A stretch of DNA of 64,000 nt, taken from Alphaproteobacteria bacterium (GTDB taxonomy: Bacteria; Pseudomonadota; Alphaproteobacteria; SP197). Under the pieces are notes generated by a model, which made no database searches, was not told the DNA's origin, and was given only the letters and a program-made list of their open reading frames with translations. The stretch lies in the NCBI GenBank assembly GCA_964291265.2, contig OZ219747.1, positions 1,344,001-1,408,000 of the forward strand, in the 5' to 3' direction. Of the stretch, positions 19,628-57,543 are shown piece by piece (position 1 is the first letter of the stretch; every line of letters begins with the position of its first letter). The position numbers and the translations under genes were made by a program.

Positions 19628-21410
19628 CCCGGTTCCGTCACCAAGGGGAATGATGGCGGCATGATGGCGTAATCTTCAGCCTCGGGCGCAGACAAGGTTC
19701 ACTTTGATTGCGCTGTTGGCGGAATCGTGTCGCATTTGGGATAGTTTTTCGGCTCATATTGGCAGGCCAAGGGAGCCGAAGGCCGTTTTTGGCGTTCGTG
19801 TCTATGCCGGGACATGCGCCAGGCACACCCCTGGCGACGCCTTCGGGAGACGCTGTGATCAGACTGTGATGGGATGCAGCACAAGCTATCCCGGCGGCGG
19901 CGCCTGGGCCGCGGCACGCAGGTTGACGAGAGTGCGGGCGAACACCTCCTGCAAGGGGAAGATCGAGGCAAAGGAGAGGCGAAGCCGGCGCACCGTCTTC
20001 GTCACCCTGCCGGCAAGCTTGAACAACCGGGAGCGTATGGTGTCGACGCGCCAGCGGGCACACTCGGTGCCGTGCAGGCCGACACGGCGCACGATGTCGA
20101 CGATGGCGCCGGCAAAGGCCGAGAAGTCCATGCGCAGCTGGTTGGCCCGCATGACATGGCACGACGTGCGATCGGAGAACAGCCACAACTGCTGATCCTT
20201 GATCCGGTTCTCCATGTCTCCCCGAGCACAGTACCTCTGCTCATAGAGTTCCCGAGCGCCGACCTCCTTCCTGGAGATGCTCGTCACAATGTAACGAGCG
20301 TTCTTGCCGCGCGGTCCCGGTAGCCATTCCGCCTTGGCCACCACTCGCCGCTCGCGGGACCATGACTTCTGCGTGCGATACCGCAGATCCCGATACCGTC
20401 TGGATGGCTTGCCGAACACCAGACAACGCCGCCTCGACTTGTTGAGTGCCTTCGTGACCATGCTGTTCAAGCGAGGATTCTGACCATATCCAAAGACATA
20501 GTCGACACCATGGTCCTCGCACCAGACCATGATGTCGTCCGTGCCGAAGTCGGCATCCCCCCGCACCACGATCCGTGTCCGGGGCCACGTGCCGCGGATC
20601 TGCTCAACGATCCGTGACAGCTCATCCACCGAGCCATCCGCCGCGCCATGGTCGGCCGTCCGCAACCGGCAGCGCAGGATGTGCTCGCCGCAGACGACGA
20701 ACAGCGGCAGGAAGCCATGGTGGTCGTCATAGCCGTGGAAGTACTTGCCCTCCTGGTCGCCATGCACCGGATCGTCGGTGGCATCAAGATCCAGAACAAT
20801 CTCCTTGGGCGGTTCCGCATGGCTCTCCAGAAACAGGTCCACAAGAAGACAGTCCAGTGCTTCGTGATCGGCCACGATCTTCTTGTAGCGGTCCAGGCTC
20901 GCCTCATGCGGATCGCCGAGTTCCAGGCGGTTCAGCGTGCTCGAGGCCGCCAGCACATGTCCACGGTCCCGCTCGCGAACCCGTCTCGCTCCCTCCACAT
21001 CGTCGATCCCGCAAGCCAGGGCCAGAGCAGGGTCGTCACGCAGACGGTCATGATCGTTGAGATCCTCGTAACCCAGAGCCAAAGCGATGATGCGCTGCGC
21101 CACCAGTGTCGTCACATCGTGTTCAATGCGACTGGGATCACGATAATCAACAAAAGCGCCAGCAACACGCTCCGTCACGTTGAAAAGCCTGTCTGCTTCC
21201 CGCAACAGAAGCGCACCACCGTCGGAGGTCATGCGGCCACCATCGAAATTGGCCACAATCTGCCGCCGTCCGAGACCTTCAAACTCAAGTTGTTGTGCTG
21301 GACACTGTGTCGCCATGTGGATGGGCTCCTTGGTGCATGTAACTCATTGGTCTTGTTCATATATCACAAACCCCATCCCCATCAATAGGAAACTTGGTGA
21401 CAAATCCGGG
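19628..21410 (-). mobile_element. IS1380-family element, copy 1
   Basis: IRs CCCGGTTCCGTCACCAAG and CCCGGATTTGTCACCAAG; 1783 bp; near-identical to copy 2. The flanks do not form a TSD. Confidence 0.9.
19886..21316 (-). CDS. IS1380-family transposase
   Basis: FDGGRMTSDGG, ALGYEDLNDHD, LDLDATDDPVHG, VRGDADF and YCARGDMENRIK. Confidence 0.9.
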   Translation of the reverse strand: MATQCPAQQLEFEGLGRRQIVANFDGGRMTSDGGALLLREADRLFNVTERVAGAFVDYRDPSRIEHDVTTLVAQRIIALALGYEDLNDHDRLRDDPALALACGIDDVEGARRVRERDRGHVLAASSTLNRLELGDPHEASLDRYKKIVADHEALDCLLVDLFLESHAEPPKEIVLDLDATDDPVHGDQEGKYFHGYDDHHGFLPLFVVCGEHILRCRLRTADHGAADGSVDELSRIVEQIRGTWPRTRIVVRGDADFGTDDIMVWCEDHGVDYVFGYGQNPRLNSMVTKALNKSRRRCLVFGKPSRRYRDLRYRTQKSWSRERRVVAKAEWLPGPRGKNARYIVTSISRKEVGARELYEQRYCARGDMENRIKDQQLWLFSDRTSCHVMRANQLRMDFSAFAGAIVDIVRRVGLHGTECARWRVDTIRSRLFKLAGRVTKTVRRLRLSFASIFPLQEVFARTLVNLRAAAQAPPPG

Positions 21411-22525: not shown

Positions 22526-24300
22526 GTGCAGCGAGTCTAGCTGCTGTACTTGCGGGTGTGAGCCCCGCCGGCGCAATTCTCAGTTTGGCGCCGTAGCATA
22601 TCCCACTGGTTCAGGGGTGACCCTGGACCAGCGAGCTGGGATGTAGAAGCCGTTGTGGGCTGGTTGGAACGCAGTGTCCAGCCGGTTCGGTCAGCCAGGA
22701 CGGCGAGCAAACCGGAGGGCCGCAGCGAAAGCGAACGATTGTATGAAGCCACGAAATGACGCTCCCACATGAAGCTGATTTGTGGGGTAAACGGGAATGC
22801 CAAAGGCTTCGTGACTGCCCGATGGCCAGAGTCGATGCGGAAGAACTGAGGTGCACGCATTGGGTTCCCCGGGGTAGAGACGACGGCAATCCGGGACAGT
22901 ACAGCAGTGAAAGATCGGAAGGTCAGGAGGACAGACAGGATGAAGTGACCCTTGAATGTCAAGGACCGCGTCTATAACCAGGATTGGGAAAGGACGCGGA
23001 GTCCTCCTGACTGGCGGATGAGGTCGAGTAAGCGTTGACGGGCGGGACAACACAACCCGTCCCGAGCGAGGACCTCAGGGCTCAGGTGGCCTATGCGGCA
23101 GGTCAAGTCGGTACTCAGAGACCGGCACCGACCGACAGACTGCAAGGTCGAAGGACGGAGCAAACGCTCGGAGATGCCGTGGGTATGGATGGGTCAGCCT
23201 TGACCATGGCGTGTCCGGCGGAAGGCTCCGCACCGAACTCCAAGTGGGTGCCTGATGCTTGAAGCCGTACCCGGGAAAACCGGACGTACGGAATTTTAGG
23301 GGGGCGTGCAGCGAGTCTAGCTGCTGTACTTGCGGGTGAAAGTCCCGCCGGCGCAATTCCCAGTTTGGCGCCGTAGCATATCCCACTGGTACAGGGGTGA
23401 CCCTGGGCCAGCGAGCTGGGATGTAGAAGCCGCTGTGGGCTGGCTGGAACGCAGTGTCCAGTTGGTCTGGTCAGCCAGGGCGGCGAGCGAACCGGAGGGC
23501 CGTAGCGAAAGCGAACGATTGTACGAAGCCTCGAAAATGAAATTTCCCACATGAAGCTGACTTGTGGGGTGTTGGGAACGCCAAGGGCCTGCCCCCAGCT
23601 TGGTGGCCAGAGTCGATGCGGAAGAACTGGGGAGCACGCATCGGGTTCCCCGTGGTAGAGACGACGGCAATCCGGGACAGTACAGCAGTGAAAGGCCGGA
23701 AGGTGAGGAGGACAGACAGGATGAAGTGACCCTTGAATGTCAAGGACCGCGTCTATAACCAGGACTGGGAAAGGACGCGGAGTCCTCCTGACTGGCGGAT
23801 GAGGTCGAGTAAGCGTTGACGGGCGGGACAACACAACCCGTCCTGAGCGAGGACCTCAGGGCTCAGGTGGCTTATGCGGCAGGTCAAGTCGGTACTCAGA
23901 GACCGGCACCGACCGACAGACTGCAAGGTCGAAGGACGGAGCAAACGCTCGGAGATGCCGTGGGTATGGTCGGGTCAGCCTTGACCATGGCGTGTTCGGC
24001 GGAAGGCTCCGCACCGAACTCCAAGTGGGTGCCTGATGCTTGAAGCCGTACCCGGGAAAACCGGACGTACGGAATTTTAGGGAGGCTGCTGGAAACGTGG
24101 TCTATGGTAGTTCTGCGACCCCGCCCGCAATCGAAAGAGCGGTGCCGGACAAAGCCTCTGCCTACGGATGCGCGCGCCAGCGGCCTACCCGACTGCTGGA
24201 AACGTGGTCTATGGGAGAACTGCGACCCCGCCCGCAATCGAAAGAGCGGTGACGGACAAAGCCTCTGCCTACGGATGCGCGCGCCAGTGGCCTACCCGAC
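22526..24300 (+). ncRNA. ORF-less group II intron (outer member of a homo-twintron; 22526-23305 + 24194-24300)
   Basis: 5' GTGCAGCG; domain 5 GAAGCCGTACCCGGGAAAACCGGACGTACGG at ~23261-23291; 3' end CCTACCCGAC. Removing it restores the IS66 end exactly, and EBS1 CGTGAC pairs with the exon GTCACG. Confidence 0.88.
23306..24193 (+). ncRNA. ORF-less group II intron (inner member, 888 nt) inserted in domain 6 of the outer copy
   Basis: Same termini (GTGCAGCG...CCTACCCGAC); domain 5 at ~24042-24072; EBS1 GCCCCC (23591-23596) pairs with GGGGGC (23300-23305). Confidence 0.88.
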
Positions 24301-25058
24301 CGGTGATTGTTGGTGATATTCACCGGTTGAGGATGCGTTTCCAGTCCTTGCGCAGAGGCCTCAGCTAGATGTCTTTTTCGGCTTGTCGTGTTTCTTGTGC
24401 GCATCGTAGCGGCCTCGTCCTTGGGTGGTTCCGACACGGATCCATCCTGACGCCTTGTAGACGGCTCCTGTGTAGCGCGGTATTCGGACGAAGGTTTCGA
24501 TAGGGGTGCGCGTATGGCATGACGGTTTCATTGGCACTACCCTTTGGGCGGGTCCCTCTCGTGGCGATCAGACGGCGAAGGGCAGTTGAGCAAGACCATC
24601 CCACGCTAGAATCCTTGAATGAAGCCAATAGTGCACAGATGAGCCAAGTTTTCATCATGGACATATTCAGGCGGCAAGGGTCTGTCCCTCCCGGAGTTTG
24701 CTGACCTCGTCATCGAGCGAGTGGAGGATGCGTCCGAGCTTGGATGGCACCTTGTCATCGAAGGCCGCCGCCAGGGCAGGGCTGAGTGTCCGCCGGTGGA
24801 TGCGGCACCAGGCAAGAGCGATCCTCTGCCCGGTTTGCGTCAGACGATAGCGATGGGATGACGGTATCCTCTCGATGAGGCCCCGCAGGCGCAGGCGCCG
24901 CAGGTCATAGGTGGCTTGACGTGAGCCATGGGTGTCGGTCGACAGGAGATCGGCAACGGCCTCTCTCATCTGGCGATTGTTGAAGCCCATGAGGAGGAAG
25001 ACATGCAGCAGGATGGCTGCGAGGACTGCCTGGATGCGTGGAGCACCGAAGCGCTTAG

Positions 25059-26841
25059 CCCGGTTCCGTCACCAAGGGGAATGATAGTGGCATGATGGCG
25101 TAATCTTCAGCCTCGGGCGCAGACAAGGTTCACTTTGATTGCGCTGTTGGCGGATTCATGTCGTATTTGGGATAGTTTTTCGGCTCATTTTGGCAAACCA
25201 AGGGGATCGAAGGCCGTTTTTGGCGTTCGTGTCTATGCCGGGACATGCGCCAGGCACACCCCTGGCGACGCCTTCGGGAGACGCTGTGATCAGACTGTGA
25301 TGGGATGCAGCACAAGCTATCCCGGCGGCGGCGCCTGGGCCGCGGCACGCAGGTTGACGAGAGTGCGGGCGAACACCTCCTGCAAGGGGAAGATCGAGGC
25401 AAAGGAGAGGCGAAGCCGGCGCACCGTCTTCGTCACCCTGCCGGCAAGCTTGAACAACCGGGAGCGTATGGTGTCGACGCGCCAGCGGGCACACTCGGTG
25501 CCGTGCAGGCCGACACGGCGCACGATGTCGACGAGGGCGCCGGCAAAGGCCGAGAAGTCCATGCGCAGCTGGTTGGCCCGCATGACATGGCACGACGTGC
25601 GATCGGAGAACAGCCACAACTGCTGATCCTTGATCCGGTTCTCCATGTCTCCCCGAGCACAGTACAACTGCTCATAGAGTTCCCGAGCGCCGACCTCCTT
25701 CCTGGAGATGCTCGTCACAATGTAACGAGCGTTCTTGCCGCGCGGTCCCGGTAGCCATTCCGCCTTGGCCACCACTCGCCGCTTGCGGGACCATGACTTC
25801 TGCGTGCGATACCGCAGATCCCGATACCGTCTGGATGGCTTGCCGGACACCAGACAACGCCGCCTCGACTTGTTGAGTGCCTTCGTGACCATGCTGTTCA
25901 AGCGAGGATTCTGACCATATCCAAAGACATAGTCGACACCATGGTCCTCGCACCAGACCATGATGTCGTCCGTGCCGAAGTCGGCATCCCCCCGCACCAC
26001 GATCCGTGTCCGGGGCCACGTGCCGCGGATCTGCTCAACGATCCGTGACAGCTCATCCACCGAGCCATCCGCCGCGCCATGGTCGGCCGTCCGCAACCGG
26101 CAGCGCAGGATGTGCTCGCCGCAGACGACGAAGAGCGGCAGGAAGCAATGGTGGTCGTAATAGCCGTGGAAGGACTTGCCCTCCTGGTCGCCATGCACCG
26201 GATCGTCGGTGGCATCAAGATCCAGAACAATCTCCTCGGGCGGTTCCGCATGGCTCTCCAGAAACAGGTCCACAAGAAGACAGTCCAGTGCTTCGTGATC
26301 GGCCACGATCTTCTTATAGCGGTCCAGGCTCGCCTCATTCGGATCGCCGAGTTCCAGGCGGTTCAGCGTGCTCGAGGCCGCCAGCACATGTCCACGGTCC
26401 CGCTCGCGAACCCGTCTCGCTCCCTCCACATCGTCGATCCCGCAAGCCAGAGCCAGAGCAGGGTCGTCACGCAGACGGTCATGATCGTTGAGATCCTCGT
26501 AACCCAGAGCCAAAGCGATGATGCGCTGCGCCACCAGTGTCGTCACATCGTGTTCAATGCGACTGGGATCACGATAATCGACAAAAGCGCCAGCGACACG
26601 CTCCGTCACGTTGAAAAGCCTGTCTGCTTCCCGCAACAGAAGCGCACCACCGTCGGAGGTCATGCGGCCACCATCGAAATTGGCCACAATCTGCCGCCGT
26701 CCGAGACCTTCAAACTCCAGTTGTTGTGCTGGACACTGTGTCGCCATGTGGATGGGCTCCTTGGTGCATGTAACTCATTGGTCTTATTCATATATCACAA
26801 ACCCCATCCTCATCAATAGAAAACTTGGTGACAAATCCGGG
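25059..26841 (-). mobile_element. IS1380-family element, copy 2
   Basis: Same IRs and length as copy 1; TTAG on both flanks (25055-25058, 26842-26845). Confidence 0.92.
25317..26747 (-). CDS. IS1380-family transposase
   Basis: 476-aa ORF nearly identical to 19886-21316. Confidence 0.9.
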   Translation of the reverse strand: MATQCPAQQLEFEGLGRRQIVANFDGGRMTSDGGALLLREADRLFNVTERVAGAFVDYRDPSRIEHDVTTLVAQRIIALALGYEDLNDHDRLRDDPALALACGIDDVEGARRVRERDRGHVLAASSTLNRLELGDPNEASLDRYKKIVADHEALDCLLVDLFLESHAEPPEEIVLDLDATDDPVHGDQEGKSFHGYYDHHCFLPLFVVCGEHILRCRLRTADHGAADGSVDELSRIVEQIRGTWPRTRIVVRGDADFGTDDIMVWCEDHGVDYVFGYGQNPRLNSMVTKALNKSRRRCLVSGKPSRRYRDLRYRTQKSWSRKRRVVAKAEWLPGPRGKNARYIVTSISRKEVGARELYEQLYCARGDMENRIKDQQLWLFSDRTSCHVMRANQLRMDFSAFAGALVDIVRRVGLHGTECARWRVDTIRSRLFKLAGRVTKTVRRLRLSFASIFPLQEVFARTLVNLRAAAQAPPPG

Positions 26842-28079
26842 TTAGGCGGATACCCGACGTTCGTCGACGACGACAGGTTGATGCAGGGCATCGAAGGTGG
26901 CTGCTCCGATCGGACAGTCGTGACTGATGCGTTGGACGTCGAGAAGACGTCGGGTGGCGTGGAAGCCGACCTCCTTGAGGTCATCGAGGTTGATCAGTCT
27001 GCGCTTGATGCCGAAGTCGTACGTGTTGTTGATCACCTTCTGCGTTCGCACACGGCCTTCCTTGAAGGACTGCTTGATACGCGAATGCTTGTAGTCCACA
27101 TGCAGCGACGGCTGCACGCCGTCGGTGATGACGCGGGTTCTGAACCGCGAGGTGGTCCGCCGTGTGATACGGCGGTTGAAGATCAACTGCACATGGTCGG
27201 GACGGCCGATGTCAAGGTTCTCGCGCATGATCTCCTCGAACAGGATCCGGCCGTGAAGAGGACGGTCAAACACCTGTGTGAGCGCACACTCCGCCTGGAG
27301 GATCGACAGGTCGTAGCGGATGCCCCTCATCGCGTCCTCGTCGGTGAAGGGATGGGGAAGCCGTGTCGTCCACTTGCGGAACAGCGCGTCGATCCGTGAG
27401 GCATCGATCTCCCCGGCCACGGCCTGCATGATCCGAGGATCGGCACAACTCAGGATGCCGTTGTCGAGAGCCTCGAAGGCCACCCCGCGCTCGCTCAGCT
27501 GACGCTTCAGGTATTCGTGACCATTGAGGCACAGCCTGGCGTTGTACGGGAAGTAGGAACAGAACTTGATGAAGCAGGGACCGAAGTCGTCGTCCACGAT
27601 GTAGATGTACCAGGCATTGACCATCGCCGTGCTGTGAACCAATTCGCAGGACGCCCTGCCCGTCGCCGGATCAACGCGCTTCTGCGTACGCAGGACACGG
27701 GCCTTCTCCTGGGCCTTGCCGACGTAAAGGACACCTTCACCGCCAGACCACAGGCGAAGATACTTCTGTGTCACATCGTCCTTGCGCTCCCCCTTCCTGA
27801 AGCTGACAAGGTCGACACCCTGGTCCCGGGCAAACCGCTCCAGGCGCGTCACAAACCGCCGCGTCATCGGCGCCATCAGAGCCGATGACGGAACAGGATT
27901 GTCCCGGACCTCCCGAAAGAACCAGGCCGCGCCACCACCCGTCTGCAGCATTGGCACATAGGCGTTGAGATACAGCCGGTCCAGACACTCAAGCTCCAGC
28001 GTCACGTGATTCTCAAGGACCTCGCCAACAGACCGTGCTATCGTCATCTTCTGGCCTCCGAACGATGGGTTCCCCACAT

Positions 28080-28340
28080 GGTTATCATAACCAACCCAGC
28101 CCTCGGGCTGTATCAGGCGGATCACACCGCAGAGCGGAACAGCGGGCTCAAGTCCTCTTTCTCACGCGATGCCTCTCTTCGGTCCGAGGCATAGCCTCAT
28201 TAGGTCCGTGGACGCGGGGATGTGAACATCCGCGTCGGTCTGGCCCTTGCGGTCAGGATGGCCATGACACCTGCCCGGCGCGCACGGGCCGTGTCAGGCG
28301 TCATCGACGCTGAGCCTCACCGTGAGCCAGGCTTGACCCT
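28080..28340 (-). other. Dense hairpin array (structured leader RNA or ssDNA origin) upstream of the wHTH-tailed gene
   Basis: Consecutive inverted repeats at 28080-28092, 28097-28110, 28117-28130, 28169-28192, 28211-28236, 28241-28264, 28265-28296, 28298-28310 and 28313-28333. Confidence 0.55.
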
Positions 28341-28517
28341 TTTTTGTCACCGAACTCGCCAATCAATTGGTCCGGCTGCCTGCACAGTCGAGACCACGAT
28401 CGCCTTCACGAATGGTTCCTCACCCGTCTGGTTGCGCCGGGGAAGTCAAGGCCACGTCTTGCCTTCAAGGCCTGCATAAATTGCGCACCGCAGCGCTTAC
28501 GGTGGAGCCATGCCTTC

Positions 28518-28979
28518 TTACAGAGCAATCGCATCCCACAGACACCACGCAAGCAAGCCGAGGAACAGGACGCTGAACGAAACAGGCAAGAAAGTTTCCA
28601 CTGTGGTGAGTTTTGAGTAGAGCTTTAGATCCCTGCCCTCTCCCAACAACTGCCACTCACGCACGAAAGGTCGATAGGGAAGTTGCTCCTCAAGCTCGTG
28701 CAACATCTTGAACTTGCCGCTATTGAGCTGGCGGTAAGATCGGATAACCACACCCCAAGAAATCGCCACGATGCAACCTACAAGGATCAAAAGCAGCAAA
28801 ACTACAGTGCCGGCATCACCACCTACTCCGAACCGCGTTACCAAACCGGCGAGGACAAGAAGAGCGGAAAGGAGGCTGACATAAAGTTGGTTTGCTCTTT
28901 CTCGCCTCTGACTTACCCTGTCGGCAAGCTCAGCGTGAAGCTTGTATAATTCAATGATTATGAGTTTTTCACCAGCCAT
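28518..28979 (-). CDS. Small membrane protein, RipA/SLATT-like putative defence effector
   Basis: ELYKLHAELADRVSQRRERANQLY, two TM helices, W..VIRSYRQLNSGKF...ELEEQLP.RPF..EW and a third TM; low-GC segment. Confidence 0.7.
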   Translation of the reverse strand: MAGEKLIIIELYKLHAELADRVSQRRERANQLYVSLLSALLVLAGLVTRFGVGGDAGTVVLLLLILVGCIVAISWGVVIRSYRQLNSGKFKMLHELEEQLPYRPFVREWQLLGEGRDLKLYSKLTTVETFLPVSFSVLFLGLLAWCLWDAIAL

Positions 28980-30204: not shown

Positions 30205-31421
30205 GTAACTGCCCAGGTCTGATTTTGCCGAGTCCTGACGGGAGGTGGATTGATGGCTGCGGTCTGATGGCGCCGAGGAGGGATGTCAGAAGCGCAGTTT
30301 CGGGATCAGCTGTATGGGATCGGGGTGGGCCAGTGTTTCGAGGACATTCCAGCCCTGTTTTCGGGCGATGGAGATGACGGATCGCAGCTTGGCGAAGTCC
30401 CATGCGCCCTGCATGGATCGGAAGCCGCCCGAGATTTTCTGGCGCAGCTTGCTCATGCGGAAGTCTTGCTCGGCCTGGTTGTTGGAGAACGGGACTTGCG
30501 GGTTGGTGAGGAAGCGCAGGCAGCCGTCCTTGTGCTTCTGAAGGCGAAGCGCGAGGTTGTGGCCGATGCGGCGTTTTCGTCGTCCGCGCTTTCCGGGCTG
30601 GAGCGGCGGCCTCTGTTCGTGGGAAGCGATGGCCTGCTCGAGGATCCTGTCCCAGGTTTGCGAGATGCGGGCGAGGAGTGAAGCGGGGATGTCGCGGTCG
30701 TTCTTGCGGGCGAAGCGGGCGGCTCTGTTGGCACGGATGAGGAGCCTGTGCATGGCGGTGGCCCAGTCTTCCTTCTCGGTCTCGATCAGAGCCTGGAGTT
30801 CGCGCAGGTGATGGGCGTTGCAGGCACCGTGGCGCACGCCCTCGAGAGTGAAGTAAGTGGCCAAGTCGTCATGGATGACGATGCCGTTGAGCGTCTCGTC
30901 GATGTGTTTGCGCCCGGTGGCGATGCGCAGGATGGTGAGCAAGGGGGTGCACAGCACATGGAGCCAGTGGGTCTGGCCGTTGATGCGGATGCCGGTCTCG
31001 TCGAGGTGTTTGACCGGTGCTTGGGTGCGGTGTGCCAGGTGAACTGGCGGAAGGTAGGGGGTGAAAGTCCCCTGGAACGAAGGAGTAACCAAACCACGTT
31101 TCTCCGCGAGCCGTGCGTCGGTTCCCGCGAGGGGGCAGGCGAAGCGTCGGTAGCGGTGCGGATGGGCGGGGCTAATGAGCACCGAAAAAGCAGTCATCCG
31201 GGGTGCCGAGGCTTTCGTACCGGTCGAAGGCAACATCGCAGGCATCGATTTGGTGAGATGTCGACGAGCGGTGTCCGAGAACCCATGCACGTCCGTACGC
31301 CTTCTGTTGGGACCCTGGGAGGTCTTCGAACTATCCCGCCTGTCGTGGCGGGATCGTGTAGGGAAAGGAGAAAGCCGAAGCCTATGATGGATGGTTTGAA
31401 GAAGTCGGATGGGGCCGTAGG

Positions 31422-32264
31422 GTGTGCTGGGCAGCGCCCAGATCAGGTGGGTTCAAGTCCCACTGGCGCTCGGGTAAGGGGCGCCATATCCAAAAGCGGG
31501 GGTCATTCCTCGCTGGCCGGGGTGAGCGAATAAGCGACGCCCTAAACGGGCACGAAGTTGGAAACGACGGACACTGCCAAGGGAAGAGCTAAGTTGGTTG
31601 ACTGTCGAGAGACAACCGGAGGGCAGGGTGTCCACCGTGAGGTGGAATCTGAAGGGCTTGCGGAGAAGTACCGGGCCGTAATCGAGGGGGCGACCCCATG
31701 ATGAATCGGTCGGCCAAAGACGGGGCAAGGTCGAGCCGGCACTATGGCGGCGAAGGCGTTCTTACTCACCCGTCGCACCAAGGTGTTTGCGAACGGCACG
31801 GTACGGAAGATCTGGACGTGACTCCAGGAGGGCTCGTCGTGTTCCCGGGTGGCACCGGGATAACGGCCCCTATAAGCCGAGAGGCGAAGTGGGAAAGGAT
31901 GCACGGCGAGCAATCGGACAACCGAATAGTACCACAAGCCCGGTGAAAGCCGGGTGACCGCGCGAGCGGCGACCGGGTGGGTCGGGGAAGGCGGTTGGCA
32001 GAGGTGGTTGGTGAGAGACGGTGAAGGAGCGAGTAAGGATCATGACGCGGACAAGTTCCATGAGCGAAAGACCCGGACGTCATGGGCCGAGGAGACTGGT
32101 TCACTGGCTCAACCTGACGGGAGAAAGGAAGGTCCACTCACTGGTGGGATCGCTTGATCTCACTGGTCCCTTCCCTGAACCTTCGAAGAGACCCCCCTGT
32201 GAAAGCGGCTTACGGGAAAACCGTACGGGCCGTTTGAGCGGCGGACGGAGGCCAGCCCTGCGGG
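31422..32264 (+). ncRNA. Nested ORF-deleted group II intron of a different type, lacking its 3' end
   Basis: 5' GTGTGCTGG; domain 5-like AAAGCGGCTTACGGGAAAACCGTACGGGCCGTTT at ~32202-32235; absent from the sister intron at 55320-55331. CCCCAT and ACTATGG are complementary to the host site ATGGGG and CCGTAG. Confidence 0.75.
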
Positions 32265-32381
32265 CCGGTGAAGGCGGCGAACAAGGGAGCGTCAGCTTCT
32301 GCGGAGTCGCCGGAGGAAAGGGCCTCAACCAAGGGGAATCCGGGACGCCAAAGCACGCACCGAACGCAGTGTCGGGCAAGT

Positions 32382-33713
32382 GTGCCACAGGCGGCGGACC
32401 GGATACGGGAAGCTGCAGAGAGGAACCCGAAGGAGCGTCTCACTGCACTCTTCCATCACATTACGCCGGATGCGCTCCGGGCGGCCTACTTCGGTTTGAA
32501 GAAGGAAGCCTCGGCAGGTGTCGACGGCGTGACGTGGGCGGCGTATGGCGAGGGTCTGGACGAGCGCTTGCTTGATCTGCACTCGCGCCTGCATCGTGGG
32601 GGAGCGTACCGGGCGCCGCCGGTTCGGCGGGTTGAGATACCCAAGCCGGACGGCGGGGCACGACCGCTCGGGATTGCCGCACTGGAGGACAAGATCGTTC
32701 AGAAGGCGGTTGTGGATGTGATCCTGACACCGATTTATGAGGTGGAGTTCCTTGGCTTCAGCTACGGGTTCCGACCGGGCCGAGGGGCGCATGACGCTCT
32801 CGACGCCCTGGCGTTCGAGATCGAGCGGCGCAAGGTCAACTGGATAGTCGACGCGGACATTCAGGGGTACTTCGACACAATCCCGAGGGATTGGTTGATC
32901 AAGTTCCTGGAGCATCGCATTGGCGACAGGCGGGTGATCCGTCTGATCCGCAAGTGGCTGAACGCTGGCGTCATGACCGACGGATCATGGAGCGATACCG
33001 GTGCGGGCACGCCTCAGGGTGCCATTGTCAGCCCCTGCCTGGCGAACGTGTTTCTGCACTACGTGCTCGATCTGTGGTTTCACAAGGCATGGCGTCCGAA
33101 GGTTCCGAACGGTGAAGCGATCATTGTCCGCTACGCGGACGATATTGTGGTCGGGTTCCAGCACAAGCGGGATGCGGAGACATACCTTCGCGACGTTCGG
33201 GAGAGGCTGGACCGCTTTGGTCTCACCCTTTACCCGGACAAGACCCGTCTCGTCGAGTTTGGCCGGTTTGCCAAGGCGAACCGGCGATCTCGCGGGGCGG
33301 GCAGGCCGGAGACGTTCGACTTCCTGGGCTTCACGCACTTCTGCACGGAGACCCGGAGAGGACGCTTCAGGCTTGGTCGCAAGCCGGTCGCAAAACGGGT
33401 CGCAAGGACCCTGGCGCGCATCGAGGAGGTGCTTCGCAATCGACGGCATCACGACATATGGGAGGTCGGCATGTGGCTTGGGCGGGTCTGTCATGGCTGG
33501 TTCAACTACTTCGCCGTCCCGGGGTCGACCCGATGGCTGCGCACGTTCCGCCACAGGCTGCAACGCCTATGGCTGCGAGCGATCCGCCGCCGCTCCCAGC
33601 GCCACCGTTTTGACTGGAAGCGACTGGAGCGCATGACCGAGCTTCTTTGGCCGCGCGTCTCCATCCGCCACCCATGGCCGATCCAGCGGTTTACCGTCAA
33701 GCACCCGAGGTAG
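32382..33713 (+). CDS. ltrA: Group II intron reverse transcriptase/maturase, no endonuclease domain
   Basis: AGVDGVT, IPKPDG..RPLGIAALEDKIVQ, SYGFRPGR, GTPQG and YADD, followed by the X domain. The stop is immediately before domain 5; the start codon is uncertain. Confidence 0.93.
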   Translation: MPQAADRIREAAERNPKERLTALFHHITPDALRAAYFGLKKEASAGVDGVTWAAYGEGLDERLLDLHSRLHRGGAYRAPPVRRVEIPKPDGGARPLGIAALEDKIVQKAVVDVILTPIYEVEFLGFSYGFRPGRGAHDALDALAFEIERRKVNWIVDADIQGYFDTIPRDWLIKFLEHRIGDRRVIRLIRKWLNAGVMTDGSWSDTGAGTPQGAIVSPCLANVFLHYVLDLWFHKAWRPKVPNGEAIIVRYADDIVVGFQHKRDAETYLRDVRERLDRFGLTLYPDKTRLVEFGRFAKANRRSRGAGRPETFDFLGFTHFCTETRRGRFRLGRKPVAKRVARTLARIEEVLRNRRHHDIWEVGMWLGRVCHGWFNYFAVPGSTRWLRTFRHRLQRLWLRAIRRRSQRHRFDWKRLERMTELLWPRVSIRHPWPIQRFTVKHPR

Positions 33714-54658: not shown

Positions 54659-57543
54659 GTAAGCGTTCGGCCGTTCGGTGATGGCTGATTTTGGTTGGTT
54701 TGGGTCTTGCTGACTATCGTCTGAGAAAGAGCTGGTAAACTCGTTTGGTCTCGATTATGGTCGAGGCCATGAAGACTTTTGCCGAGACGCGCGGAGCGAC
54801 ACAGCAGCTGACGGGAGGTGGTGACGGCCTATGTCGGGCGTCAGTGGCCTTGTCATGCGAGGCGCCTGACTGGCGTGCGCTCTATGAGGCGGAGCGGGTT
54901 CGTGCGGATGCGGCGGAAGCGCGTATGCGGTGTGCCAGGCGAACTGGCGGAAGGTAGGGGGTGAAAGTCCCCTGGAACGAAGGAGTAACCAAACCACGTT
55001 TCTCCGCGAGCCGTGCGTCGGTTCCCGCGAGGGGGCAGGCGAAGCGTCGGTAGCGGTACGGATGGGCAGGGCTAATGAGCACCGAAAAAGCTATCATCCG
55101 GGGTGCCGAGGCTTTCGCATTGGTCGAAGGCAACATCGCAGGCATCGATTTGGTGAGATGTCGGCGAGCCCCGCGGTGTCAGAGAACCCATGCACGTCCG
55201 CACGCCTTCTGTTGGGACCCTGGGAGATCTTCAAACCGTCCCGCCGGTTGTGGCGGGACCGCATGGGGAAGGAGAAAACCGAAGCCTATGATGTACGGTT
55301 TGAAGAAGTCGGATGAGGCCGTAGTACCTGTGAAGGCGGCGAACAAGGAAGCGTTAGCTTCTGCGGAGTCGCTGGAGGAAAGGGCCTCAACCAAGGGGAA
55401 TCCGGGACGCTAAAGCACGCACCGAACGCAGTGTCGGGCAAGCGTGCCACAGGCGGCGGATCGGATACGGGAAGCCGCAGGCTAGTCCAGTGGTTTGCCG
55501 TCCAGTACCCGAGGTAGGAGCCGGATGGATTAACGTCCACGTCCGGATCTGCGCGGGGGGTGCGCAGCAATGCGCATCCCTACCGCGTCTGACCTGCGCC
55601 GTGCGAAGAATTCTGCCCGTGCCCGTGCGGGCACATTCAAGTTTCATCTCGACCGCACTCGTGATCAGCTCAAGGAGGCTCGCCGGGAGGTGAAGCGTGG
55701 ACAGGCCCGAGCGGAGGCGCTGGAGCAGGAAAGGGACGCTCTGAAGCTCAAGAACGCTGAACAGGCGAGCGAGCTGAGGAATCTCCGCGGGACGCGTGCC
55801 AAGCACGCGACGGCGCGCTTCGGGTCGAAGAGCGAGAAACGGAAGAAGAAGGAAGGCACCGGGAACAAGCGGGGTCAGCAACCCGGCAAAAGAGCGGCCA
55901 CGGGCGCACTCCGCGTCCGAAGCTCAAGGAGAAGCACGAACGCCATGATCCACCGGCATCGCAGCGCACGTGCCCGTGTTGCGGCGAGCCCTATGTGGCC
56001 AACGGCAGCCACGAGACCTCGATCATGGAGGTCCATGTCAAGGCTCATATCCGGCGGATTGAACGTGGGCGTTGGCGCCGTGGTTGTCAGTGTTCGTCGG
56101 CGCCTGCGGAGATCATCGCGCCGCCACCTTTGCGCTTGCTTGCGAATACCCCCTTCGGCATCAGTGTCTGGGAATGCGTGCTCTATGAGCGCTTCGCCTG
56201 CTTGCGTCCCCTGCGCCGGGTCTCGCGATGGCTGGAAGACCAGGGACTGCCGATGGCGCCGGGAACGATCGCTGGCGGCATGAAGAAGATGACGCCGATG
56301 TTCGCGCCTCTCGCTCAGGCCATCCTCGATCATCAGAACCGGCTGACGGTGCGCCACGGCGACGAGACCAGCTGGCGCATCCAGTCCCTCAAGGCCTCGG
56401 GGCGCTCGCAGAAGGCCTGGCTGTGGACCGCGGTCAGCGCCGACTCCGTCTTCTTCCTTATCGACCCGTCACGCAGCACCCGGGTGGCCATGGTGCTGTT
56501 CGCCTCCACCGAAGGCACCGTCTTCCTTGTCTGCGATCGCTACGCGGTCTACAGGAAACTGGAGCGTGAGCTTGATGGCAAGGTGATCCTCTGCCTTTGC
56601 TGGGCGCACTCCAGGCGCGATGTGATCGAGGCTGCGGCAGGCCAAGAGGGGCTGGAAGAGTGGTGCGACAAGTGGCTCGACAGGATCGCGCTGATCTACA
56701 CACTGAATGGGCAACGGCTGAAGCACTACGATCCCGCACGCAAGCGTCAGTCAGCGAGGTTCAATGCCCTGCAGAAGGACCTTCGTGCGGCTGTCGAGGC
56801 GCTGTTCAGGCAGGCTCAGGAGGAACTCGACGCCTTGCCCGAGGGTGCACGCGAAGCGAAGCCCTTGCGTTCCCTGATCCGTCACCGCGAGGGACTGTGC
56901 GTCTTTGTCGACCATCCCCAGGTGCCCATGGACAACAACTTTGCCGAGAGAACCCTCCGGGGTGCGGTGACCGCGAGAAAGCTGAGCTTCGGCTCCGACA
57001 GCGAGGAAGGCGCCGCCTTCACCGCCATCATGTACTCGGTCATCGGCACCCTTGCCATGAACGGCATCAACGTTCGGCGCTGGCTTCATGAGTGGCTTGA
57101 TGCCTGCGCGCAGAACGGCGGCAAGCCGCCGGATGACCTCGACCCGTGGCTGCCATGGTCGATGACCCCGGAGCGTCGAAGGGACCTCATGGAACCGGGG
57201 TGATCGAGTGCCGTTACGACGGCCGTGACTTCACCGCGCACGAGATGGCGCTGTTGCGCTCCCTGATCACCCAGCACCCCACCCGTGCGGCCATCGCCCG
57301 CGCCTTCTGCCGCGAGACCGGCTGATACAAGCCCGACGGGGCCTCAAGAACATGATGGCGAATGTCGCCTTTCTGGCCATGCACCGCGACGGCCTCATCA
57401 CCCTGCCGCCACCCCAACGACGAGCAACCCGACCCGGACCCATCGTCTTCGGACCCAACAGCGAACCGCCACGTGGTGCGCCTCCCAAACGCATCCTCAA
57501 CCGGTGAATATCACCAACAATCACCGCGTGGCCGAACGCTTAC
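54659..57543 (+). mobile_element. IS66-family element copy B (both IRs intact)
   Basis: IRs GTAAGCGTTCGGCC and GGCCGAACGCTTAC; 8-bp TSD ATCTGGCT. Transposase 54757-57203 carries an intron and a frameshift near 55888; DUF4338 (57200 onward) has a stop and an internal deletion. Confidence 0.92.
54930..55589 (+). ncRNA. ORF-deleted derivative (660 nt) of the 31030-33785 group II intron, sense in the IS66 transposase
   Basis: Same 5' end and domains 5/6. The RT is reduced to its first and last codons, and the 3' end is GTC rather than GAC. Removal restores ATGCG|TGACCTG as seen in copy C at ~59516-59527. Confidence 0.9.

Follow-up and report, generated by a model that had tools for sequence, protein, structure and literature searches.

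Can a gene that resembles no known transposase, split by a foreign insertion and preceded by a run of stem-loops, mark a class of transposon that has gone undescribed? The question is raised by a locus in the 64,000-nucleotide stretch of an alphaproteobacterial contig analyzed here in its entirety (OZ219747.1, positions 1,344,001 to 1,408,000; hereafter the window), where a first-pass annotation made from the letters alone had proposed a candidate rolling-circle or RNA-associated element. The locus is probably a dead copy of a multi-copy insertion sequence (IS) of about 1.8 kb, the protein of which is predicted to be a Rep_trans-like tyrosine nickase and which likely moves by copy-out rolling-circle transposition.

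The element is mobile, as its many copies have the same ends and differing flanks. One chromosome carries five loci with identical ends and unrelated flanks, another genome carries nine loci of which eight keep the full left end, and nine left ends were found at contig breaks in genome G559. The protein family is large and comprises two clades that are about 25% identical to each other. With protein P0001 as query, at least 7999 protein clusters were matched (7999 of the 8000 scored), many of them on contigs of about 1.8 kb, and a distant member (L071, 28% identical) matched at least 7938 (7938 of 7999), a few of them named MarR regulators. Matches were present in 12 of 41 close genomes, in 4 of 301 genomes of the phylum at E 1e-20, and in 27 plasmid records; none were found in phage and viral collections. 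Searches of Pfam, NCBIfam, and PDB sequences returned no match to a transposase, recombinase, or HUH protein: both halves of the window gene fell below every Pfam and NCBIfam cut-off, intact homologues matched no NCBIfam family, nothing in the PDB sequence search came below E 0.16, and the 30 matches in the ESM Atlas had no common Pfam family.

The boundaries of the window copy were set by comparison within the source genome (G000), in which the protein matches eight places. Besides the window copy it contains four others that are long or truncated, together with several fragments of the ends, and no copy is intact. The four other leader-bearing copies align only across 150 to 157 nucleotides (nt) before the ATG, and the left end of the window copy is therefore placed at 28203; three more fragments begin at the same left point, and all copies start at or near CTAATGAGGC. 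On the other side, copies cease matching at the CTAG at 24609-24606, and the long ones terminate at CAAGGA(A/T)TCTAG or a decayed form of it. The element is thus bounded by CTA(A/G) on the left and CTAG on the right, and the downstream boundary of 24607 suggested by the first-pass annotation was right within a base. It spans 3598 bp here, or about 1.8 kb without the IS1380 (NF033539, 381 bits against a cut-off of 180) that interrupts it and has CTAA on both sides (26845-26842 and 25058-25055); four further near-full IS1380 copies occur in the source genome. The split gene of about 530 amino acids was likewise correctly recognized, as its two parts lie on either side of IS1380 and intact relatives measure 531 to 535 amino acids. 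One 531-codon open reading frame (ORF) is the only gene in the ORF list of the element, and the repeat listing of the window contains no terminal inverted repeat for it, the listed repeat I1 being that of IS1380; the absence of inverted repeats had also been noted at first pass.

That this copy is inactive was proposed from the outset and is borne out by its lesions, namely Y327S, E337Q, the loss of one codon, and the IS1380 insertion; judged from these, the window copy of the element is dead. The three other long copies in the source genome carry a frameshift, stop, or deletion. Among its six copies that include the catalytic motif, Ser replaces Y327 in four and Gln replaces E337 in five, and none of the six keeps both residues. 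A version with the Tyr codon is present in two public runs, X1 and X3 (G>T at L002:1727).

What the family conserves was determined from an alignment of 144 homologues from both clades. D23, Q251, E253, R335, and E337 are invariant (144/144), and K325, Y327, and K329 are kept in 143 of the 144, giving the layout Q251xE253, K325xY327xK329, and R335xE337. Further invariant residues (R88, E114, N175, and N196) lie in an inserted region, and no conserved HxH was found among the invariant columns. The family residues agree in order and within-motif spacing with the active site of RepD as given in the available text of PMC4797284 (D46, R140xD142, R189xY191xK193, and R212xE214). The earlier suggestion that the window gene holds a decayed Rep_trans-type tyrosine motif is therefore upheld by the conserved motif, by the predicted fold, and by a left end that carries a nick word.

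An AlphaFold2 model (pLDDT 89 for the whole protein; pLDDT 91 and pTM 0.89 for residues 1-376) predicts a TBP-like catalytic sheet followed by a C-terminal winged helix. The motif residues sit on predicted strands, with 322-329 and 333-340 carrying K-x-Y-x-K and R-x-E. The fold check proposed with the first-pass annotation came out in its favor, with Rep_trans initiators among the best, if middling, solved matches of the model: in Foldseek, RepSTK1 (4CIJ) ranked first with the full model (E 8.7e-3) and second to fifth with the domain (E 1.9e-3 to 9.2e-3, probability 0.85-0.93), and the named viral matches include TBP-like proteins. VIA-align gave Z 9.1 for TBP (root-mean-square deviation [rmsd] 4.3, 178 residues aligned), Z 7.1 for RepSTK1 4CIJ (rmsd 4.5, 184 aligned, model residues 15-375), and Z 7.0 for RepDE 4CWC (rmsd 4.8, 178 aligned). 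The winged helix-turn-helix (wHTH) noticed at first pass, from a string at 24909-24841, also folds as such in the model; the region of about 378-507 aligns to wHTH proteins with Z up to 9.8 and makes up about 120 of the 531 residues. Since the structural scores alone are middling, the case for Rep_trans rests on fold, motifs, and DNA taken together.

The DNA evidence comes from a survey of 90 loci, 70 of which have the left hairpin, the other 20 being cut by contig ends, decayed, or variant. The left cores were CTAA in 52, CTAG in 14, TTAA in two, TTAG in one, and CTAC in one. The adjoining stem is GAGGC/GCCTC in 66 of 70 and the compensated GGGGC/GCCCC in the remaining four, and its loop is TNC in 56; read on the bottom strand this gives C-GNA-G, a mini-hairpin of DNA that is very stable. 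Right ends have the form AAACTTGA-~25 nt-TCAAG-N4-5-CTAG, with CTAG in 52 of 53 when it was not imposed in anchoring. The ends are accordingly asymmetric, with CTAA and a 5-bp hairpin on the left, CAAG-N4-5-CTAG on the right, and no inverted repeats. Members of a multi-copy set all have the same base at position four of the left core, position four on the right is always G, and three TTA(A/G) left ends are paired with CTAG right ends. Because the left core may start with T or end in A or G while the right stays CTAG, the crossover would fall inside the TA. The first-pass annotation had seen no target site duplication; since both ends share CTA, a TA duplication and a shared core look the same in sequence. 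According to the available text of PMC9371924, Rep_trans and MOBT enzymes cut within the word CT'AA, which is nicked both in pT181-type origins and in the MOBT origin of transfer (oriT).

The target is biased as well. Of 84 distinct left flanks, 61 have A at position -4 (background, 0.35), as do all nine G559 flanks. CTAG is scarce in the source genome (777 observed, 14441 expected), and copies often lie at CTAG sites of other IS ends, in both orientations; the CTAG at the end of an IS110-type element pre-exists in relatives (flank search, plasmids). Some insertions are at or next to the stop codon of a gene, where the left-end TAA or TAG is able to replace it (L192 and L193 in G559, L013, and G000:C2:4154757). 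Stop-codon targeting as a rule was rejected as unconvincing (14/77, versus 18/154 in other frames).

From these features a scheme may be proposed. The protein would bind the left hairpin with its AGACCGACGAG box and the right CTTGA..TCAAG repeat, and Y327 would nick the left end at CT/AA, assisted by a metal that D23, E253, and E337 coordinate. Host replication from the 3'-OH would displace the top strand, and a second transesterification at CT/AG of the right end would close a single-stranded circle, the junction of which should read ...CAAG-N4-CT/AA-CGAGGC. Exchange of this junction into a target A-N3-(C/T)T/AG would insert the element, so that the left CT and the right AG would derive from the target. 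We favor, with slightly less assurance than for the locus itself, the broader view that a TBP-fold (Rep_trans-type) tyrosine nickase has become a self-sufficient transposase of a new prokaryotic class, one that retains the ancestral nick word CT/AA at its left end, copies out through a single-stranded DNA circle, and pastes into A-N3-CT/AG without double-strand breaks, with tens of thousands of members filed as hypothetical or MarR proteins.

Several observations weigh against this interpretation. No PDB structural match reaches a Foldseek E of 0.001, the top-ranked structure for the domain is an unrelated cyclase, and the Z scores of about 7 are middling, with TBP outscoring the Rep proteins. 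The PF02486 profile was not matched, P0001 matched 0 Pfam families, and no Rep protein was among the PDB sequence or profile matches. Motif I reads QxE instead of RxD, and neither a motif II (T/SxY/ExG) nor the final E of YxKxxE could be recognized. The candidate D-D-E metal triad (D23, E253 of QxE, and E337) is invariant, and the putative active-site correspondence is one of order and spacing. On the DNA side, one diverged copy in the source genome has CTGA at both ends, which better fits a 3-bp duplication than a cut after CT, and CT'AA lies beside the hairpin here, whereas the available text of PMC9371924 places it in the hairpin loop at the origins of pT181 and of integrative and conjugative elements (ICEs). 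The comparison of filled and empty sites proposed at first pass yielded no clean empty site when flanks were searched in relatives of G000 and G342, in plasmids, and in the G559 genus, and in-silico empty sites of 71 elements gave no sequence match across the junction. No circle junction was among the joints listed in public runs, for which contigs only were available and flanking repeats dominate, and transposition that ran on beyond the right end was not seen either.

How far do these points favor another explanation? The one that survives best, though we consider it unlikely, gives the same enzyme a peel-and-paste mechanism like that of IS200/IS605, in which single-stranded DNA would be excised at both CT/A sites, the donor resealed, and the circle inserted at a replication fork, with no strand displacement. 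The asymmetric ends, the subterminal hairpin and its stable C-GNA-G mini-hairpin on the bottom strand, the short fixed target, and the lack of inverted repeats would all suit it. Orientation relative to replication leans weakly the other way, being unbiased (7 of 11 copies or fragments in the source genome are leading-like; flank skew is positive at 26 of 48 loci, P = 0.67, in a crude test in which some rows are perhaps reverse matches of a palindrome). The characterized Rep_trans proteins, moreover, start replication.

Somewhat less probable still is a new recombinase or transposase in which a TBP-like sheet serves another chemistry, such as staggered cuts that duplicate TA or CTA or an RNA-assisted exchange guided by the leader, and the likeness to Rep_trans is shallow. 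The middling structural scores with TBP above the Rep proteins, the TA or CTA at both ends, the CTGA/CTGA copy, the conserved four-way structure of the leader, and the extra invariant R88, E114, N175, and N196 speak for it. Against it, four spaced motifs and the nick word fit Rep_trans simultaneously, no leader segment was seen to vary with the fixed target, and the leader is no better folded on the transcribed strand (better as RNA in 23 of 62) and has no Rfam match.

It is very improbable that the locus is a small rolling-circle plasmid or satellite that became integrated, or simply a regulator gene spread by other elements: the shared build of archaeal Rep-Arvir replication proteins (a Rep_trans-like fold plus a MarR-like wHTH, in the available text of PMC13107129), the MarR or ArsR regulator labels that clade-2 members bear in their sources, and the frequent adjoining of other IS ends are outweighed by sharp conserved ends with unrelated flanks, the lack of an integrase or other gene, the A at -4, a wHTH that is a small part of the protein, and the absence of relatives from phage and viral collections.

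The leader was the other subject of the first-pass annotation, which had given it about 260 nt. Of this, 156 nt belong to the element (relatives, 134 to 262 nt), and 28204-28469 is flank, 73% identical to G000:C2:250197-250472, the translation of which matches a protein with Pfam DDE_Tnp_1_6 (37%, E 1e-6). The flank itself matched no Pfam family; on this similarity it is likely the decayed remainder of a DDE transposase gene's 3' end, outside the element. About nine stem-loops had been described at 28080-28333, and local folding did find 10 hairpins there, which is barely above the 7.9 ± 0.9 of 100 doublet shuffles (folding energy, -92.9 versus -85.4 ± 6.6), and about half of the stem-loops described at first pass lie in the flank. 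Folding z scores as RNA and as DNA were -1.4 and -3.2 for a 298-nt stretch, -0.2 and -1.6 for the true leader of the window copy, and, as medians, -3.3 and -3.9 for the relatives' leaders (30 of 67 folded), a result that holds without the first 30 nt.

An alignment of 62 leaders (60 of the 67, seven long or duplicate ones being omitted, and two from the source genome) revealed a stem from GGCTCCGGTCG to CGACCGGAGCC that lies over the GGAG ribosome site, with three hairpins inside it. Tested on the same alignment from which it was drawn, this structure had 92.6% of cells paired, versus 86.1% in shuffles (0/500) and 23 to 44% in slid controls, and both sides change in eight of 11 pairs of the closing stem. 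Judged from these alignments, the leader structure is conserved and covarying in relatives; in the window copy, half of the supposed leader is foreign, and the true one is decayed, the 5' arm of its stem being altered and the stem lost. No strand preference was found (RNA better in 23 of 62, DNA better in 26), Rfam had no match over the element in the window, and at eight related loci it returned only microRNA-type models and one small RNA model, under gathering scores, on the L101 hairpin. A role of the hairpins as noncoding RNA thus found no backing, and a 260-nt noncoding RNA leader at this locus was rejected, given that other copies match only 150-157 nt, that the rest is flank, and that the hairpins barely exceed chance. 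The simplest reading of the leader is translational damping or a single-strand signal, and its stem likely keeps translation low.

How the element relates to known systems depends on whether function or construction is compared; in its proposed mode of movement it comes closest to IS91, and in the build of its protein to Rep_trans and Rep-Arvir. With Rep_trans (PF02486; RepC, RepD, RepSTK1 4CIJ, and 4CWC) and MOBT (RelSt3 and NicK) the element protein shares a predicted crescent TBP-like beta-sheet, at middling scores, the spaced D, x-x-acid, Y-x-K, and R-x-E residues on strands, a separate helical DNA-binding domain, and, per the text available of PMC9371924, the CT'AA word at the predicted start site. 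The strand Tyr in its YxK context and the W/LxRxE are present in the family and lost in the window copy. The element protein differs in having no PF02486 or other sequence match, QxE in place of RxD, an insertion of about 190 residues that separates the first motif from the second, and a C-terminal wHTH. The element itself differs in being a multi-copy IS of chromosomes that lacks replicon, integrase, and conjugation genes and whose nick word adjoins the hairpin and is not inside it. The Rep-Arvir and RepSNJ2 proteins (DUF7845, PF25227) likewise join a Rep_trans-related catalytic domain to a MarR-like wHTH; in the part of PMC13107129 available they are archaeal virus or plasmid replication initiators with the origin downstream, in contrast to the bacterial insertion element here, and PF25227 was not matched by the element protein. 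The build of Rep_trans and Rep-Arvir proteins was also compared through the available part of PMC6499999.

IS91 and ISCR elements, as the accessible text of PMC5714925 presents them, likewise carry a single gene, lack terminal inverted repeats, have a start that differs from the end, insert at a short fixed target, and use a tyrosine as nucleophile, and the steps that we infer are those of the IS91 scheme, run by an unrelated enzyme. The IS91 TnpA is of the HUH type with two tyrosines, whereas the element protein has a TBP-like model with one conserved catalytic-type tyrosine, no Pfam or NCBIfam match, and no conserved HxH.

IS200/IS605 elements share the subterminal hairpin, asymmetric ends, and a tetranucleotide target; the present protein, in contrast, is a non-HUH protein of 531 amino acids, with no TnpB, no match to a Y1 HUH TnpA in Pfam or NCBIfam, and no replication-orientation bias seen. 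Membership of DDE families with CTAG or TA targets (IS630, IS5, IS701, and IS1380) is contradicted by the lack of a family match and by ends that are not inverted repeats. The bridge RNA recombinases of IS110/IS1111 (DEDD RuvC plus Tnp20) were not matched in Pfam or NCBIfam. Stand-alone MarR or ArsR wHTH proteins measure about 100 to 170 amino acids, and here the wHTH is about 378-507 of 531.

In the available text of PMC13107129 and PMC5714925, rolling-circle or single-strand transposition is described for HUH enzymes, and Rep_trans proteins appear as initiators of plasmids and phages and as relaxases of ICEs. If confirmed, a Rep_trans-type transposase would mean that such transposition arose a second time independently, and would form a new transposase class; the novelty lies at the level of the transposase class, pending biochemistry. 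No paper on a Rep_trans-type transposase or on this element family was found in the open-access literature (subscription journals, supplements, and ISfinder were outside the scope). The window copy is of value as a pointer to a large two-clade family that annotation has missed, and a system consisting of one protein and a short, defined target should be readily testable. The features of the locus are collected in Table 1.

Table 1. Features of the element and its left flank (window coordinates)
Feature	Position	Strand	Basis
Whole element	24606..28203	-	Boundaries from source-genome copies and relatives
Left core CTAA, predicted nick site CT/AA	28200..28203	-	52/70 hairpin-anchored left ends; nicking inferred
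Left-end hairpin GAGGC-3 nt-GCCTC, then conserved AGACCGACGAG box, decayed here	28186..28198	-	70 left ends
True leader, 156 nt	28048..28203	-	Source-genome copies
Leader domain: stem over GGAG ribosome site and three enclosed hairpins (relatives)	28053..28155	-	Alignment
N-terminal 401 codons from ATG 28047; predicted TBP-fold (Rep_trans-like) catalytic domain, residues ~15-376	26845..28047	-	Model
Decayed catalytic motif (family K-x-Y-x-K ... R-x-E)	27040..27075	-	Y327S, E337Q, one codon missing
Inserted IS1380, foreign to element	25059..26841	-	CTAA both sides
C-terminal 130 codons: winged helix-turn-helix and helical tail	24667..25059	-	Model
Right end AAAACTTG(A/G)-~25 nt-TCAAG-4 nt-CTAG	24606..24652	-	Source-genome copies and relatives
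Flank, likely decayed DDE transposase 3' end; about half of the proposed hairpins	28204..28469	+	Similarity

Some further arrangements concern derivatives and variants of the element. In the source genome, G000:C2:898162-896097 (minus strand) holds about 1.9 kb of unrelated DNA between a left end of 80 bp and a right end of 90 bp that point the same way, possibly a non-autonomous carrier or a deletion product; a piece of the enclosed DNA reads like what we take to be a HigA-type antitoxin. In a second copy, at G000:C2:249848-250472, an IS1380 occupies the left-end CTAA, and the element breaks off at 188 bp, where the transposase-like remnant also seen beside the window copy takes over. Tandem duplications of about 130 to 140 bp occur inside the element or at its end (L020 right end and G000:C2:3309063-3309442). 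At L082:2829-2880 the right CTAG of an element abuts a miniature repeat of about 50 bp in which two left ends are joined, the second of them inverted; this may be read as head-to-tail insertion into a derivative resembling a miniature inverted-repeat transposable element or a repetitive extragenic palindrome. Genome G039 has two occurrences of the 23-nt left-end motif (L183 and L186); neither is followed by a transposase, and the genome gave no match to the protein. Clade 2 (L071 and L039, named MarR or ArsR regulators) keeps the catalytic motif and lacks the clade-1 end motifs.

The window copy lies in an IS graveyard, in which another IS1380 ORF occupies 19886-21316. Group II intron pieces found by Rfam and tandem duplications of 781 bp and 107 bp are distributed among 22550-24300, 31064-33713, and 54964-55188, and an ORF at 32268-33713 was labeled by eye as reverse transcriptase-like. 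Upstream of the element, a low-GC patch carries a gene for an 8xMP octameric membrane protein (28518-28976, minus strand; PF24838, E 1e-32).

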